Assembly (NCBI GenBank): GCA_016711605.1
Contig: JADJSS010000009.1
Span: forward strand, 22,386-86,385
Length of the DNA: 64,000 nt
DNA from: Saprospirales bacterium
GTDB taxonomy: Bacteria; Bacteroidota; Bacteroidia; Chitinophagales; JADIYW01
Reading direction: 5' to 3'
Made by a program: the position numbers and the translations under genes. Under the pieces are notes generated by a model. That model had not been told where the DNA came from. It did not search any database and saw only the letters and a list, made by a program, of their open reading frames with translations. Below, in pieces: positions 2,500 through 8,682 of this stretch; position 1 is the first letter of the stretch, and each line of letters opens with the position of its first letter.

Positions 2500-3180
2500 A
2501 TGACTAATAAAATAAACATTGCCATCGATGGTTACTCAGCTTGCGGAAAATCATCAACTGCAAAACGAGTGGCAAAAAAACTCAGCTATATTTATATCGA
2601 TTCTGGTGCGATGTATCGTGCAGTAACACTTTATTTTCAACAGCATTTAATAGATTTAGATAATTTAGAAGGTATTGAAAATGCGTTGCCAAAAATTGAA
2701 ATAGATTTTAAAAAAGTGGGTGATGTACATCATACCTTTTTGAATGATGTTGATGTTGAAGATGAAATTCGCCAACCACGTGTGGCAGCTATTGTTTCCG
2801 AAGTAGCAGCGATGAGTAACGTGCGCAGAAAACTGGTGGAACAACAGCAAAAAATGGCGGCACAAAAAGGAGTAGTGATGGAAGGTCGCGATATTGGAAG
2901 CGTAGTCATTCCTGATGCTGAACTCAAATTTTTTATGACAGCAGATGTAGATGTGCGCACCAAACGCAGGCAAGATGAACTACTGAAAAAATCAGGAAAA
3001 TTATTTCCGTTGGAAGAACTAAAAGCCAATCTTTTGCATCGCGACAGAATTGATTCCACGCGCGAAGATTCACCATTAACAAAAGTTGTTGATGCAATAG
3101 AAATTGACACCACACATCTTACTTTAGAAAATCAAATTGATTTAATTTATAACAAAGCAATGCAGTTGGTTAACAATTGA
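2500..3180 (+). CDS. cmk: Cytidylate kinase
   Basis: 226 aa with the P-loop IAIDGYSACGKSSTAKRVAKKL, then IDSGAMYRA and GRDIGSVV blocks typical of Cmk. Confidence 0.9.
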   Translation: MTNKINIAIDGYSACGKSSTAKRVAKKLSYIYIDSGAMYRAVTLYFQQHLIDLDNLEGIENALPKIEIDFKKVGDVHHTFLNDVDVEDEIRQPRVAAIVSEVAAMSNVRRKLVEQQQKMAAQKGVVMEGRDIGSVVIPDAELKFFMTADVDVRTKRRQDELLKKSGKLFPLEELKANLLHRDRIDSTREDSPLTKVVDAIEIDTTHLTLENQIDLIYNKAMQLVNN

Positions 3181-3326
3181 TGTTTTGTCCTCGCTGTTAA
3201 ACTGAGCTTGTCGAAGTCCAATTAACGATTAACAATAGATAAATTCATACCTTTCTTAGTAAACTTTGCGTAAAATCCATTGCGCACTTTGCAGCTAAAT
3301 AACAAAAGTAATCGTAACTTTAGTAT

Positions 3327-4421
3327 ATGGAATTAGTAATAGACGATATTAAAATCAAAAACACTGCTGACGAATTAAAAACAAAAATAATTCGCAAAGA
3401 AGTGCAATTAGCAAGCAAAGAGTTTCGTGCAAAACATCCGATTTTACAGCATCAAAATGCCATCGGACTTTCTATTTTTTTAGTATGTGTTGCCATGATT
3501 ATTTTGTCCGCTTATTTATATTTAACACAAAAAATTGGTGTTATTGCGGTTATACTTTCTGTTGCATTCTGGACTTCATTTTTACATGAATTAGAACACG
3601 ATTTAATTCATTTCATGTACTTCAAAAAAAATAAATTCATCCAAAATTTAATGATGCTTGGTGTTTGGGTTTTTCGACCAATGACTATAAATCCGTGGTT
3701 GCGCAGAGAAATTCATTTTCATCATCATCGTGTTTCAGGCACCAAAACAGATATCGAAGAACGTGGTGTTACCAACGGTGAGAAATGGTCTTTCAAAAGA
3801 CTAATCACTACTGCAGATATTTTATTAGGTGGCGTTTTAAGAGGAGCCCGAATTCGCAAAGACATTATAGAAGCCGTAAAAAACGGAGAACTTCCAAGAG
3901 AACAAGCTCTTGAATTTAAGAAATTAAAAATCTATGGCATGTTGCCATTCACGCTTGGTTTATATTTAGTATGGTATTTATTTTTAGCGCATTATACAGT
4001 TCATTTTTTTACATCGATTTTAAATATAGACTACCAAAGTCCGGCAATTATACAAGCACAATTTAAATGGATAAATCCATTAGTAGCTATTTTAATTTTT
4101 CCAAATTTATTCCGAATGTTTTCGTTGCATTTTATTACTTCTAACATGCACTATTACGGCGATGTAGAAGCAGGAAATGTAATGCAACAAACGCAAGTGT
4201 TAAACAAGTGGTATTTCATTCCAATGCAATTATTTTGCTGCAATTTTGGTAGCACTCATGCTATACATCATTTTGTGGTCAACGAAACATTCTATGTTCG
4301 TCAATTCACCGCAGCTAAAGCTCATAAAGTAATGCAAGAGCAAGGTGTTCGATTCAATGATATTGCTTCTATTAAAAGAGCCAATCGTTTTTTTGAAACC
4401 AGTAGATTGAAAATAGCATAA
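3327..4421 (+). CDS. Fatty-acid-desaturase-like membrane di-iron protein
   Basis: 364 aa with several hydrophobic segments and three His boxes (HELEHDLIH, HFHHHRVSG, HAIHHF). Confidence 0.65.
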   Translation: MELVIDDIKIKNTADELKTKIIRKEVQLASKEFRAKHPILQHQNAIGLSIFLVCVAMIILSAYLYLTQKIGVIAVILSVAFWTSFLHELEHDLIHFMYFKKNKFIQNLMMLGVWVFRPMTINPWLRREIHFHHHRVSGTKTDIEERGVTNGEKWSFKRLITTADILLGGVLRGARIRKDIIEAVKNGELPREQALEFKKLKIYGMLPFTLGLYLVWYLFLAHYTVHFFTSILNIDYQSPAIIQAQFKWINPLVAILIFPNLFRMFSLHFITSNMHYYGDVEAGNVMQQTQVLNKWYFIPMQLFCCNFGSTHAIHHFVVNETFYVRQFTAAKAHKVMQEQGVRFNDIASIKRANRFFETSRLKIA

Positions 4422-4425
4422 CTAA

Positions 4426-5466
4426 ATGATGCTAAAAAGAGTCATTCAAAAATTTCTTGTTTTAGCATTTTATATGTTGTTTTTTGTGACAACAAATGCG
4501 CAATCTGCAATAGAATATTATAGAATTGGGAAACTTAATTACGACTCAAGTCAATATCAGTTGGCTATTTCCAATTTTAGTGAGTCAATATTATTATATC
4601 CAAATTTCGACAGTGCTTATTATTATCGTGGATATTGTTATTTACAACTAAAAGACACTATGAAGGCAGACAATGACTGGCAAACTGCCATCCAAATAAA
4701 TCCACGTTGTAATTTAGCAAGATTCTATCATGCTTCTGTAAAATATCATCATAATGACTTTTCCGGTTCTATAAATGAATTAGATACAATTTTATATTTG
4801 GATAAGAATGACAAAGAGGCATTATTTGCAAGAGCATATTTAAAACTGGAACTTAATGACAATGAAAATTCAGTAAAGGACTGGAATAAATATATACTCC
4901 TAAACAATAGGAATGACACTGCTTATTTTAACAGAGGTTTAGCATTTGAGAATCTTGAAAATTATAAACAAGCAGTAAAAGATTACAAGAAATCCATAGA
5001 AATAAATCCTCAGAATGCAAGTGCTTATTGCAACCTTGGAAATATTATGTACAATACAAAAAAATATAAGACCGCCTTATTGTATTTTGATAAAGCTATT
5101 CTATTTGATCCAAAATTAAAACAAGCTCATTATGGAAGAGGTTTAACAAACAATACAACTAATAATGATAAACTAGCAATAATTGATTTTAATAATGCAC
5201 TAACAATTGATCCAATATATGACAGAGCATATACAGGAAGAGGTGTGGCAAAATCACATCTTGGCAATTATAATGCAGCACTTCTTGATTATTCAAAATC
5301 TATTGAATTAAATTCTGGCAAATCAAATGCTGTTGCATACTATAATCGTGGCAATATGAAAGTAAAGCTGGCTGATATAGATGGTGCTTTACAAGATTAC
5401 AAAATTGCATTTAGTTATGACTATAAACCTGCAAAAAAAGAAATAGATGCACTTTTAAAGAAATAA
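4426..5466 (+). CDS. Secreted TPR-repeat protein
   Basis: 346 aa with an N-terminal signal peptide (AFYMLFFVTTNAQS). Repeated 34-aa TPR-like units carry AxxYxxRG and AIxxxP signatures throughout. It starts 4 nt after the upstream stop. Confidence 0.8.
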   Translation: MMLKRVIQKFLVLAFYMLFFVTTNAQSAIEYYRIGKLNYDSSQYQLAISNFSESILLYPNFDSAYYYRGYCYLQLKDTMKADNDWQTAIQINPRCNLARFYHASVKYHHNDFSGSINELDTILYLDKNDKEALFARAYLKLELNDNENSVKDWNKYILLNNRNDTAYFNRGLAFENLENYKQAVKDYKKSIEINPQNASAYCNLGNIMYNTKKYKTALLYFDKAILFDPKLKQAHYGRGLTNNTTNNDKLAIIDFNNALTIDPIYDRAYTGRGVAKSHLGNYNAALLDYSKSIELNSGKSNAVAYYNRGNMKVKLADIDGALQDYKIAFSYDYKPAKKEIDALLKK

Positions 5467-5681
5467 TTTTTTGTGTGATTTTAAATATCTTTTTCAAAAT
5501 AAAATCAGCATCATTGGCAACTTTGATACCGACATACACAACACACCTTTAGGCAAATCTTCAGCAAGCATCATATTGGCATTTGCCACATTTCTACTCA
5601 CTTTTCTGGAATATTTCACACCTAAAAATTACAAGAATGTGTAAAACTATTTCTGTATCTTTAGTAGTATAAAGCATTGCT

Positions 5682-7001
5682 ATGAAAAAGAGTTTATTAA
5701 TAAGTTTATTGATCCTAGTATCAATAGCTTCATTTGGTCAAGAAACAGATACTTCATTAGTAGTTACAAAATCAAACCTCAAGTTCGGAGATTATATCTA
5801 TGCAAACTTATTAGAATTTAAAGGATGGCACAATGAACGCGCAGGAAACTATGAGAAAGCAATGGAATATTATAAAAAAGCATTGGCAATTCATCCAAAC
5901 TCAGATGATATTCCATTTAAAATGGCAAGAACACAAAAGAAAATCCAACATGATATCACATTAGATAAATCGTCACCAGAAATACAATTATTAACTCCTA
6001 AAATTATTGGCTCGCTAACTGTAGAAGCAGATGACATTGGGCATCCTCATCTATTTATAAGTGGTATTGTAAAAGATTTAGCAGGTGTAGAATGGATTAA
6101 CATTAACGGAACAAATGTACCTGAAATAAAACCTGGTGGTTATTTTTCAGTAAATATTCCAGGAACTGCATCTAAATTGATTATTCAAGCTGCTGATAAA
6201 AAAGGCAATATCGGTACGCATACTTATGATATCGTTCAGCCACCTAAAACAACAATTGACAATATTGCTTCTGATAAAATTCCACTCATTACCATTGACG
6301 ATAATCCGGCATTTCATGCAATATTAATTGCATGTAGTGATTATAAAGGTGGTGGCTGGAATCCATTACCAACAACAATTAGTGAAGCCAAACAATTGAA
6401 AAGTGTATTGGTTAAAAAATATGGATTTGACAGCACTAATATTGTAGAATTGTATAACAAAGACTACATAAAGATTTTATCAACCATGAGTTCTATATTA
6501 GAATCGCTAAACGAAAATGACAACTTAGTTATTTATTTTGCTGGACACGGAACCTATAAAAATAAAGGAACTGAATTAGTTGGATATTGGGTGCCACTAA
6601 AAGCAACAAATATTGATGTTGATTATATTTCAAGCAAAAAATTAGATGAACTCGTTGCTGGCAGCAAAGCAAAACATATACTGATGTTATCAGATGCATG
6701 TTACAGTGCTGCAATGCGTGGCAGCGAAGAAGTAAGAACTCCAAGCAAATGGGAATATAAACTCAGAAGCCGACAAGTATTAACCAGCGGTGGCATGGAA
6801 AAAGTACCAGGCGAAAGTGTGTTTGTAAAAATGGTTTTAGAAGCATTGCAAAAAAATGAAGACACATTGTTGCCAGTTAGTGAGTTATATAGTATTATCT
6901 ATGGTGGTGTAAAAAAACAATCCAATACAGAACCTAAATTAAATGATTTTGGCAAAGATGGCAACGAAGGTGGTCAGTTTTATTTTATAAAGAAAAATTA
7001 A
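5682..7001 (+). CDS. Secreted caspase-family (peptidase C14) protein with an N-terminal TPR and a beta-sandwich region
   Basis: 439 aa with signal peptide MKKSLLISLLILVSIASFGQ. The C-terminal half has a caspase-like His/Cys dyad context (VIYFAGHGTY and ILMLSDACYSAAM). Confidence 0.75.
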   Translation: MKKSLLISLLILVSIASFGQETDTSLVVTKSNLKFGDYIYANLLEFKGWHNERAGNYEKAMEYYKKALAIHPNSDDIPFKMARTQKKIQHDITLDKSSPEIQLLTPKIIGSLTVEADDIGHPHLFISGIVKDLAGVEWININGTNVPEIKPGGYFSVNIPGTASKLIIQAADKKGNIGTHTYDIVQPPKTTIDNIASDKIPLITIDDNPAFHAILIACSDYKGGGWNPLPTTISEAKQLKSVLVKKYGFDSTNIVELYNKDYIKILSTMSSILESLNENDNLVIYFAGHGTYKNKGTELVGYWVPLKATNIDVDYISSKKLDELVAGSKAKHILMLSDACYSAAMRGSEEVRTPSKWEYKLRSRQVLTSGGMEKVPGESVFVKMVLEALQKNEDTLLPVSELYSIIYGGVKKQSNTEPKLNDFGKDGNEGGQFYFIKKN

Positions 7002-7011
7002 ACTAATAGCT

Positions 7012-8682
7012 GTGCAAAGAATTAGTTTACTCATTTTATTATCGCTTGTATTTGTCAATTTATTTAGCCAAAATATAGTAACCAAAGTTATCGGAAAAAT
7101 TAGAAAAGCAGATGGAACCGTAGTCAGAATAGGAACCAAACTTTCGGAAAAAGAAGTGCTCCAATTTTCTTCTAAACAAGATAAAATAAGAATGATTGTT
7201 CCAGAAAAAGGAACATTTGTGGTAGGTCCGAGCATCACCGCAGAAAAAAAAGATGATGTATGGATAGAACTATTATCCAAAACAATTAGAGTGCAAAGTT
7301 CTACAGCATCTTTAAGTGCTCGAAGTAAAATGTTTGAAAAAATTCCGGAAGCATTTCAAACAAACACAAACATCAATCAGCTCATATTAATAAGCAATAG
7401 CCAACCGAACAAATATCTATTCAATACTGCTGATTACGATTTGTCAAACGGAAGTCGATTTGTATTGCAAATAAATCAGAAAGACAATAAATCGGTGATT
7501 TATAAATTACGCACTTCTAAAGACACCTTATTGTTATATCGTTCAGATTTTCAAGTAGACGAAGACAATGGAAAGGAAAAAGAATATCTGATCGCATTTT
7601 ATGATAAACCTAAAAACAAGACAAATAATAAAGATTTCGCAAAAATAAAACCATACTTTGATGATGCTGGAGAAATGGAAGCAATTATTTATACCTTAAT
7701 AATTGGTAACAAAACAAAACCTAAAACCACACAAAAAGAACTGTGCTATAATGAAGTATATAAAGCACTTGGCAAACCTTCGGACCTCTTATTTTATTCA
7801 ACGTTCGATAAAATGATGCAGCAAATAAATAATCCAACCACAACTAATAAAAATTATAAAAAAGGATTAAAAGAAGATATTGCATCTTACCAAAAAGTAA
7901 CAAAACTTCCAACACCTAACATGCGAAGTGCAGAAGATTTGCCTCCACAGTTTTCATTAAGAAAATACACACCAACCGTTCAGTCTCAAGGCAATTACGG
8001 CACTTGTGTCGCATGGTCAACTGCTTATGCAGCGCGCACCATCGCTTGGTCTGTACGAAATAATTATAATAATATCGATAGTGCGGCAGCCATTTCAAAA
8101 CATTCATTTTCACCGCAGTTTTTATTCTTAAATATAAAATCGCAAAGCGATGCACAATGCCAAAATGGTTCAAGTTTGGTCGATGCGCTAAAATTTATGC
8201 AAGAAAAAGGTGTCATCGCTTGGGACAAATCTCCTTACAATTGCTCTACCATTTATTCTGAAGAAGATAAAAAAAATGCGTTCAATTATAAGATTCAAAA
8301 TTTCCAGCGACTTAGTTCTTGGTTCGAGATTGATGACAGCACTATCACCACTATGAAGCAAACGCTGACAGAAAAAAAATCAATTGTATTCAGCATGCAT
8401 CTGCCAAAAAGTTTTAATTATGTAGATACTAAAACTGGTATCTGGTATCCAAACGTCAAAGATTATATCGAAGCAAAAAATGCCAAAAAAATTTCAGATT
8501 TATATGTCGGCCACGCCATGTGCATAATCGGTTACAACGATGCCATTAACGGCGGCTCATTCGAAATCATGAATAGTTGGGGCACCTATGCTGGCAAAGA
8601 CGGCTTCTACTGGATCAGCTACGACGACATCAAAAAATTCGGCAGTCAGGTTTTGATTATTGAAGACTCAGAAACAAGGTAA
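7012..8682 (+). CDS. Secreted papain-family (peptidase C1) cysteine protease with a ~300-aa N-terminal domain of unknown function
   Basis: 556 aa, GTG start 10 nt after the caspase gene, signal peptide MQRISLLILLSLVFVNLFSQ. The C-terminal domain has the C1 catalytic contexts QGNYGTCVAWS (Cys), VGHAMCIIGY (His) and MNSWG (Asn/Trp). Confidence 0.8.
   Translation: MQRISLLILLSLVFVNLFSQNIVTKVIGKIRKADGTVVRIGTKLSEKEVLQFSSKQDKIRMIVPEKGTFVVGPSITAEKKDDVWIELLSKTIRVQSSTASLSARSKMFEKIPEAFQTNTNINQLILISNSQPNKYLFNTADYDLSNGSRFVLQINQKDNKSVIYKLRTSKDTLLLYRSDFQVDEDNGKEKEYLIAFYDKPKNKTNNKDFAKIKPYFDDAGEMEAIIYTLIIGNKTKPKTTQKELCYNEVYKALGKPSDLLFYSTFDKMMQQINNPTTTNKNYKKGLKEDIASYQKVTKLPTPNMRSAEDLPPQFSLRKYTPTVQSQGNYGTCVAWSTAYAARTIAWSVRNNYNNIDSAAAISKHSFSPQFLFLNIKSQSDAQCQNGSSLVDALKFMQEKGVIAWDKSPYNCSTIYSEEDKKNAFNYKIQNFQRLSSWFEIDDSTITTMKQTLTEKKSIVFSMHLPKSFNYVDTKTGIWYPNVKDYIEAKNAKKISDLYVGHAMCIIGYNDAINGGSFEIMNSWGTYAGKDGFYWISYDDIKKFGSQVLIIEDSETR

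Follow-up and report, generated by a model that had tools for sequence, protein, structure and literature searches.

A putatively exported orthocaspase-like protein and a linked papain-like protease in a Saprospirales bacterium: a candidate cell-envelope protease module of Bacteroidota

The protease genes and their predicted products

The DNA analysed here, referred to as the window, is a 64,000-nucleotide stretch of contig JADJSS010000009.1 from the Saprospirales bacterium assembly GCA_016711605.1, and its positions 3327 to 8682 carry a row of same-strand genes that includes one for a caspase-family (C14) protein, hereafter the orthocaspase, and one for a papain-like (C1) cysteine protease fused to an N-terminal module (NTD). 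Comparison of this locus with its relatives revealed genetic coupling of the caspase, the C1 protein and their partner proteins, with both protease active sites intact as judged from alignment, and we consider that these proteins very probably constitute a conserved functional module in the cell envelope. A preliminary description of the window, made from the sequence alone, had listed four open reading frames (ORFs), namely those for a desaturase-like protein, a tetratricopeptide repeat (TPR) protein, the caspase and the C1 protease; their coordinates, strand and spacing (4, 215 and 10 nt in that order, all on the + strand) were reproduced exactly and Pfam agreed with the domain calls for all four. 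The 215-nt interval, treated there as an empty spacer, was found to hold a relic of a gene for a CHASE2-domain protein, and the translational coupling proposed for the caspase and C1 genes gained no support, the two being 10 nt apart without overlap. The features of the locus are as follows.

3327-4421, + strand: fatty-acid-desaturase-like gene (PF00487, E 7.8e-17)
4426-5466, + strand: putatively exported TPR protein of 346 residues (Pfam TPR_1, seven stretches), with a signal-peptide-like N-terminus at residues 1-25 (nt 4426-4500)
5471-5644, + strand: CHASE2 gene relic, a 57-codon ORF with similarity to the intact CHASE2 of locus L010
5682-7001, + strand: putatively exported orthocaspase-like protein of 439 residues (PF00656 and one TPR)
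5682-5738, 5808-5900, 5946-6266 and 6267-6998, + strand: its predicted signal peptide, single TPR (residues 43-73), β-sandwich region and C14 domain, respectively
6546-6548, + strand: codon of its catalytic His289, in the motif FAGH289G
6693-6701, + strand: its codons for D338-A339-C340, in the motif SDAC340YS, with catalytic Cys340
7012-8682, + strand: putatively exported two-module NTD-C1 protein of 556 residues with a GTG start (signal peptide, NTD, short linker or pro-segment, PF00112)
7069-7830, + strand: NTD, residues 20-273, an autonomous family lacking a Pfam model
7321-7323, + strand: codon of NTD Arg104, in the loop of lowest pLDDT of the NTD model
7831-7938, + strand: linker or short pro-segment, residues 274-309, NPTTTNKNYKKGLKEDIASYQKVTKLPTPNMR/SAED (the slash marks the candidate cut), containing Arg305 (nt 7924-7926)
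7939-8679, + strand: C1 catalytic domain, residues 310-556, assigned from Pfam and the catalytic residues
7987-7989, 8005-8007, 8512-8514, 8572-8574 and 8578-8580, + strand: codons of the C1 catalytic residues Q326, C332, H501, N521 and W523, respectively

The orthocaspase matched Peptidase_C14 (PF00656) over residues 212-367 with 48.9 bits against a cut-off of 21.4. Its His289 and Cys340 are in register with His86 and Cys139 of Arabidopsis metacaspase-4 (PDB 6w8s), and among 55 homologous caspase domains the His was kept in all 55 and the Cys in 52, confirming the intact His/Cys context that had been noted previously. Asp338, two residues before Cys340 and the only S1-pocket residue that was mapped, aligns with Asp137 of metacaspase-4 and is conserved. 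An Asp in this 'D-x-C' arrangement is a feature of the Arg/Lys-specific branch of metacaspases and orthocaspases, and its role in specificity is established for the family. Metacaspases and orthocaspases are described as cutting after basic residues (PMC6426788), and by its sequence the window orthocaspase should likewise cleave after Arg or Lys. The NCBIfam model for caspases of the EACC1-associated type (NF047832) gave 61.8 bits, below its cut-off of 140, and there is no EACC1-type neighbour.

With known orthocaspases and metacaspases (MEROPS C14B) the protein shares the C14 fold, the His/Cys dyad and Asp in register with metacaspase-4, a TPR and a hydrophobic leader, whilst the conserved pairing seen in the subfamily of the window, with a papain-like enzyme, a separate CHASE2 protein and NTD proteins, has no earlier description in the literature searched. 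Prokaryotic metacaspases bearing TPR, Sel1, N-terminal leaders or CHASE2 fusions, and membrane and extracellular forms, were catalogued in 2012 (Asplund-Samuelsson et al., PMC3501461), as were signal-peptide forms, and the earlier statement that described bacterial caspase systems are cytoplasmic is therefore too broad. Bacteroidetes operons with several metacaspases or other proteolysis domains were already noted in the same work (PMC3501461).

Among the relatives, TPR proteins of about 1,300 residues at L006:4081-8004 and L088:3150-6995 have at their C-terminus a caspase domain whose His/Cys dyad is intact and which matched the window caspase at an E-value of about 1e-87 in phmmer; PF00656 is silent on it at E<0.01, so this subfamily is under-annotated. 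TPR proteins of this size that Pfam misses are among the 55 caspase domains counted above. The L001 locus (2950-7990) carries two tandem TPR-caspase paralogues (919 and 743 residues) upstream of its NTD-C1 gene, as against the single short caspase of the window.

The C1 domain matched Peptidase_C1 (PF00112) over residues 311-539 (42.6 bits; cut-off 20.7), and Q326, C332, H501, N521 and W523 are invariant across 10 full-length homologues, in agreement with the intact Cys/His/Asn context claimed before. Among proteins of solved structure, those closest in sequence to the C1 domain are xylellain (3OIS, E 1.9e-8) and Lpg2622 of Legionella (6A0N, E 9.5e-7), which likewise conserve the Gln, Cys, His and Asn and have a short N-terminal segment instead of an I29 prodomain; they differ from the window protein in having no known caspase partner and in lacking both NTD and DUF4384. 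No Pfam match to an I29-type prodomain, as found in a classical papain zymogen, was obtained ahead of the C1 domain, and a linker of about 36 residues alone separates it from the NTD.

Signal peptides were judged by a crude charge-plus-hydrophobicity heuristic applied to the N-termini. The TPR, caspase and C1 proteins, which had all been credited with signal peptides, each passed, their charged N-termini running into a strongly hydrophobic stretch, and the cytoplasmic products of the neighbouring genes cmk, rpsA and pckA failed. The trait is common to homologues, with signal-peptide-like N-termini in 10 of 12 C1 proteins, in 86 of 99 stand-alone NTD proteins and in complete caspase homologues too. 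Neither NCBIfam nor Pfam gave a match in the caspase or C1 protein to the C-terminal sorting domain that marks cargo of the type IX secretion system (T9SS). Since both proteases have signal-peptide-like N-termini and no T9SS tail, they should act in the periplasm or at the envelope; going by these N- and C-termini, the logical place for them to work is the periplasm or the envelope's inner face, where the CHASE2 domain would also lie.

Adjacency of the C14 and C1 genes across relatives

The C1 subfamily was surveyed in 84 non-redundant loci (designated by L numbers where single ones are named), which were gathered by looking up contigs and by scanning one genome for each GTDB species, and which were annotated using profiles made from the proteins of the window and relatives of these. 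A same-strand C14 gene adjoins the C1 gene in 20 of the 84 loci, with a gap of at most 68 nt in 18 of these 20, and it lies upstream of C1 in nine pairs and downstream in 11. In a neighbour-joining tree of the 84 C1 domains all 20 C14-paired loci fell into one clade, and within a 23-member C1 subclade 20 members adjoin C14 or CHASE2, two of the three exceptions being on contigs of only 1.6 and 3.8 kb. The linked clade consists entirely of metagenome-assembled genome (MAG) or metagenome sequences. A C14 neighbour was found in none of the other 59 C1 loci. These make up a C1-DUF4384 group of their own, to which cultured Ferruginibacter, Pinibacter and Filimonas belong, and lie among housekeeping genes (thioredoxin-like, DUF4442, malic enzyme, MlaE). 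The context of this distant, Ferruginibacter-type group was set aside as plain synteny on account of those neighbours.

The nearest homologues of the window proteins come from Chitinophagales and Saprospirales MAGs, and the genomic setting of the pair varies among the closest of them. In L010, where C1 is 83% identical, the order is desaturase, CHASE2, C14, NTD-C1, rpsA; L001 (C1 66% identical) keeps the window synteny with its two tandem TPR-caspase genes; and in L002 (C1 72% identical) the C14-C1 pair stands alone amid unrelated genes. Because the pair thus changes genomic context between L002 and the window, L001 and L010, inheritance of synteny alone is insufficient to account for it. The adjacency persists through inversion of gene order, change of context and divergence of C1 to about 32-40% identity, and it is far above chance. 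The preliminary description had offered conservation of this neighbourhood as a test by which its proposal could fail; the pair was recovered in 20 loci, in both orders and in several contexts, and this conserved adjacency supports the functional link suggested between the two cysteine proteases. C1-DUF4384 proteins without an NTD also pair tightly with C14 (L008, L013-L025), so the C14-C1 link is independent of the NTD.

One alternative is that these are ordinary degradative enzymes which happen to be co-located, that is, unrelated exported proteases for scavenging or turnover sharing an operon, with the TPR proteins as chaperones. Chitinophagales encode many exported peptidases, and the large C1-DUF4384 sister group without a caspase neighbour does sit in housekeeping synteny. 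However, unrelated enzymes would not be expected to stay adjacent through inversion, change of context and the sequence divergence seen here, nor to be coupled to a sensor-type membrane protein and a non-catalytic module, and the window proteases have no T9SS tail for release outside the cell; we regard this alternative as highly improbable.

The desaturase gene, listed with the others in the preliminary description, accompanies the pair only in the syntenic trio of the window, L001 and L010 and is absent in other contexts; it was rejected as a component of the system and, being restricted to three syntenic loci, is best regarded as a syntenic neighbour. The TPR gene is a lineage-specific accessory gene, with an orthologue of 60% identity in the equivalent position of L001, and the idea that it is a fragment split from the TPR array of the caspase was not supported, the similarity being of the generic TPR kind at 27-28%. 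In many relatives a TPR array is fused to the caspase, replacing the separate TPR gene, and to that extent the earlier inclusion of TPR proteins in the system holds, as TPR arrays recur. The flanks of the locus are housekeeping genes, with cmk upstream and rpsA, a CpeT-like gene and pckA downstream.

The N-terminal module and its CHASE2 partner

The approximately 300 residues ahead of the C1 domain had been described as unassignable to any domain and as possibly a long prodomain. The former statement stands, since no Pfam model matched the family when first 10 and then 102 members were scanned, and members are annotated as 'hypothetical protein' at source (e.g. in Ekhidna sp.). The latter does not. 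Residues 1-280 matched a 322-residue stand-alone protein without a protease domain (P0013; 42% identity over residues 5-271), and a search of 1.84 billion cluster representatives with an NTD profile returned 268 matches, mostly of 255-285 residues, a length corresponding to a signal peptide and the NTD alone; a metagenome scan with the same profile yielded 3 loci. L095:1239-4118 has three consecutive genes, for CHASE2, for an NTD on its own and for a C1 peptidase, a split form of the window NTD-C1 fusion, and most relatives of the C1 subfamily have C1 directly after the signal peptide, a C-terminal DUF4384 and no NTD. Given its stand-alone occurrence, the split genes and the existence of NTD-less C1 proteins, the NTD is an autonomous module and not a prodomain.

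Structure prediction, which had been recommended for this region, gave a confident AlphaFold model of the NTD from a 102-sequence alignment (pLDDT 88.5, pTM 0.83), with two β domains and a helical bundle: a β domain at residues 21-87, a flexible loop of lower confidence, an immunoglobulin-like (Ig-like) sandwich at 124-217 and a three-helix bundle at 221-273. A Foldseek search of the model against the PDB found no significant relative, the best match being a weak one (E 0.012, probability 0.96) to the C-terminal Ig-like and helical domain of MtxA (4Z29). Other affinities were tried and rejected: an N-terminal β-strand motif hinted at a FecR-like domain, for which, as for any other Pfam model, there was no match in the 102 members, and a BLAST hint of a relation to DUF4384 (E 0.04) was not borne out when the NTD profile was aligned with 73 DUF4384 tails using hhalign (probability 0.2%).

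MtxA, from magnetotactic bacteria, is a secreted protein of about 313 residues with a trypsin-sensitive linker and a conserved gene for a CHASE2-domain protein next downstream (PMC4439547). It resembles the NTD family, as predicted and modelled, in secretion, a size of about 300 residues, an N-terminal β region, a linker (protease-sensitive in MtxA), an Ig-like and helical domain and the CHASE2 neighbour, but differs in that no sequence similarity was detected and the fold match is weak; moreover, in the MtxA system CHASE2 is coupled to an adenylate cyclase as its output, and proteases play no part. The resemblance suggested by the model is a lead rather than an established homology.

Stand-alone CHASE2 membrane proteins of about 390-440 residues, which lack an output domain and have a transmembrane (TM) helix at the N-terminus and further TM helices at the C-terminus, adjoin NTD genes in L003, L005, L006, L010, L088, L094, L095 and L097, and a CHASE2 neighbour was present in six of the seven informative stand-alone NTD loci. 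The recurrent unit is CHASE2, followed by a caspase with β-sandwich and C14 domain, with or without TPR, and then the NTD; L094 has these genes in another order, and other loci add C1 and/or DUF4384. The ancestral unit is accordingly CHASE2, then the (TPR)-orthocaspase, then NTD with or without C1 and DUF4384, and we think it somewhat probable that the NTD is a partner module of CHASE2. The only characterised CHASE2 receptors, the CHASE2 cyclases, respond to a protein signal (PMC13001267). The caspase/CHASE2/NTD triad of L094 (4825-8648) lies beside CoiA_N, AbiJ_NTD5 and KAP-NTPase genes, a setting like that of a defence island.

Genetic coupling of a caspase to CHASE2 is shared with the caspase-CHASE2 fusions, such as the Trichodesmium metacaspase-CHASE2 (PMC3501461) and EACC2-caspase-CHASE2 (PMC8195603). 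In contrast to these, in which the fused caspase is predicted to be cytoplasmic, the module considered here has a separate, output-less CHASE2 and a caspase with its own putative signal peptide, which should place the caspase on the CHASE2-domain side of the membrane.

In the window itself CHASE2 survives only as the relic. Positions 5483-5581 correspond to residues 258-290 of the intact 394-residue L010 CHASE2 (79% identity, E 2e-10) and positions 5567-5635, in the same frame, to residues 370-392, so that the first 257 or so codons and an internal transmembrane segment of about 80 codons have been lost. The relic gave no Pfam match, whilst intact CHASE2 is present in L010, L005, L006, L088 and L094; in L001 no relic was found, though the TPR orthologue is there. 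The TPR gene of the window lies directly upstream of the relic, and it may have displaced CHASE2 or the two genes may once have coexisted. Elsewhere in the window, overlapping + strand ORFs at 1375-1950 and 1926-2420 (191 and 164 residues; no Pfam match) correspond to a single in-frame gene of L010 with 87% and 98% identity, respectively, and the frameshift within 1375-2420, near an A-run at about 1901, denotes a pseudogene or an assembly error. The relic and this frameshift may reflect decay of the copy in the window or errors in its assembly. Scans for promoters and terminators, which used a consensus that is not the Bacteroidota one, gave counts not clearly above those of shuffled sequence.

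Candidate cleavage sites, the proposed cascade and its alternatives

At exactly six residues ahead of the first conserved Pro of the catalytic domain, 19 of the 24 scorable members of the C14-linked C1 clade have an Arg, the remainder having the Arg shifted by two residues (2) or a Lys (3), and the same position holds Arg in none of 59 members of the unlinked clade. In the window this site reads PNMR305/SAEDLPPQFSL, the slash again marking the candidate cut, and it is preceded by a short conserved segment, KGLKEDIxSYxK..., that by its sequence could act as a mini-propeptide. In the unlinked C1-DUF4384 group (L028 and about 58 loci, e.g. L038, L041 and L059) the boundary motif is '(V/I)YE(P/G)L.D...KNPLPE' with a conserved Lys. 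The boundary Arg of the linked clade argues for maturation of the papain-like protease by the caspase, the regulated element being the linker of about 36 residues and not a 300-residue prodomain. Activation in this direction, from orthocaspase to papain, agrees with the metacaspase-type Asp and the clade-specific R305 and is plausible, if rather doubtful. A further basic position, residue 104 of the NTD, is Arg in 94 and Lys in 3 of 102 family members, and from its place in the model Arg104 is a speculative candidate for a protease-sensitive site.

The reading that we put forward, tentatively and with the balance slightly against it, is that the locus represents, in partly decayed form, a conserved protease module of the cell envelope in Bacteroidota, chiefly Chitinophagales, that works as a cascade. 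The full module would comprise three genes. The first would encode a stand-alone CHASE2 membrane protein in which the CHASE2 domain faces away from the cytoplasm between an N-terminal TM helix and C-terminal ones, and which has no output domain on the cytoplasmic side; the second a secreted orthocaspase, in most cases preceded by a TPR array and a β-sandwich; and the third a secreted NTD-based protein, often extended by a C1 protease and/or DUF4384. The NTD would dock the C1 protease onto the CHASE2/TPR-caspase assembly, and the orthocaspase, presumably Arg/Lys-specific, would cut the NTD-C1 protein at Arg305, five residues ahead of the start of the catalytic domain (LPPQF), and possibly also at Arg104 in the NTD loop, thereby releasing or activating the papain-like effector.

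Several observations count against this proposal. All of the evidence for export comes from the crude N-terminal heuristic; the unlinked C1 clade, too, bears a basic residue near the domain boundary ('KNPLPE'); and R104 is kept in the NTD of L097, whose contig shows a CHASE2 partner and no caspase, which makes any tie of R104 to the caspase weak. The TM-score between the NTD and MtxA is only 0.28 (query) or 0.40 (target), and a profile search of PDB sequences with the NTD yielded no MtxA match. A distant NTD homologue at L098:7001-8742 (profile E 7e-9; from an organism of 56% GC; also L099 and L100) departs from the CHASE2 link, its gene overlapping by 4 nt one for a cytoplasmic cupin/AraC-type regulator with no CHASE2 there. 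Finally, CHASE2 has been lost from the window copy, and therefore either CHASE2 is dispensable or the copy is decaying.

The same data can be read without a cascade, the NTD docking to or co-sensing with CHASE2 and the TPR-caspase and C1 being independent outputs of one envelope complex; both proteases would then attack third-party substrates, for instance proteins of the envelope, foreign ones coming in or a protein signal, with no processing of one protease by the other. The most recurrent core is indeed NTD and CHASE2, even without a caspase (L097) or without C1 (L006, L088 and L094), C1 and DUF4384 seem to be optional additions to the NTD, and R104 is conserved regardless of a caspase neighbour. 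MtxA with its CHASE2 cyclase sets a precedent in which a CHASE2 receptor has a secreted partner, and the response of CHASE2 cyclases to a protein signal is likewise in keeping with parallel outputs. Such independence leaves the restriction of the boundary Arg to the C14-linked C1 clade (19/24 vs 0/59) and the pairing of NTD-less C1-DUF4384 proteins with C14 (L008, L013-L025) without an explanation, and we consider it somewhat unlikely.

As to what would set the proposed cascade in motion, a proteinaceous cue or product is a reasonable guess, because the characterised CHASE2 receptors sense a protein signal. That the module is a receptor-coupled extracytoplasmic cascade, in which CHASE2 and the MtxA-like module sense a periplasmic protein cue and switch on the TPR-orthocaspase, whose cut after a conserved Arg frees an active papain-like executioner that remodels or destroys the envelope, appears quite improbable.

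A role in suicide or defence has to be weighed as well, with CHASE2 and the NTD sensing damage or an invader (phage, predator or toxin) and the protease pair destroying envelope proteins and so killing or arresting the cell, as an extracytoplasmic analogue of caspase-based abortive infection. Bacterial caspase-like proteases recur in conflict systems (PMC7159879, PMC8195603), the L094 triad has AbiJ-like and KAP-NTPase genes beside it, and the system varies and has a patchy occurrence, some copies having lost genes, shuffled domains or, in L001, gained caspase paralogues in tandem. Yet a search for known defence systems with PADLOC, gasdermin-caspase systems and Craspase included, returned no system match, only a weak generic match for the caspase (E 6.7e-5) and none for the C1, NTD, CHASE2 or TPR proteins; the loci of the window, L001 and L010 lie amid housekeeping genes (cmk, rpsA, pckA) and in no defence island; and no NTPase, nuclease, gasdermin or other usual partner in conflict systems was seen, nor any CHAT, gasdermin or Cas gene near the locus. 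We judge a defence role to be very improbable.

Craspase, of type III-E CRISPR, in which the TPR-CHAT protein Csx29 cleaves Csx30 (bioRxiv 10.1101/2022.08.17.504292), offers a parallel in that it employs a TPR-bearing clan-CD protease whose gene adjoins that of its target, the target in our module being a candidate. DUF4384, a domain frequently fused to proteases, forms the C-terminal domain of some Csx30 proteins (bioRxiv 10.1101/2022.08.17.504292) and occurs in the C1 relatives too. Craspase differs in being cytoplasmic and RNA-guided, in using CHAT and not C14 and in having no papain, CHASE2 or signal peptides, and the locus holds no CRISPR components. A published module of C14, C1, CHASE2 and NTD was not found in the full-text literature, from whose coverage most subscription journals are absent, and within the same coverage we agree with the preliminary description that no bacterial system of the caspase-papain kind has been described. 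The locus extends known kinds, namely orthocaspase operons and CHASE2-coupled caspases, and includes a new domain family.

To our knowledge, bacterial caspase homologues are abundant and almost none has a known substrate or trigger, the cases studied being cytoplasmic. The locus offers a testable pairing in which an exported orthocaspase is tied to a candidate substrate or effector (C1), a candidate sensor (CHASE2) and the NTD family. Should the cascade be false, the new domain family and the conserved neighbourhood would still be useful for the annotation of Bacteroidota genomes. Should it be true, it would constitute an extracytoplasmic relay of cysteine proteases from two clans, a bacterial form of initiator and executioner logic with a new domain family, and would provide the first functional handle on output-less CHASE2 proteins and a hint at the role of MtxA-like proteins.

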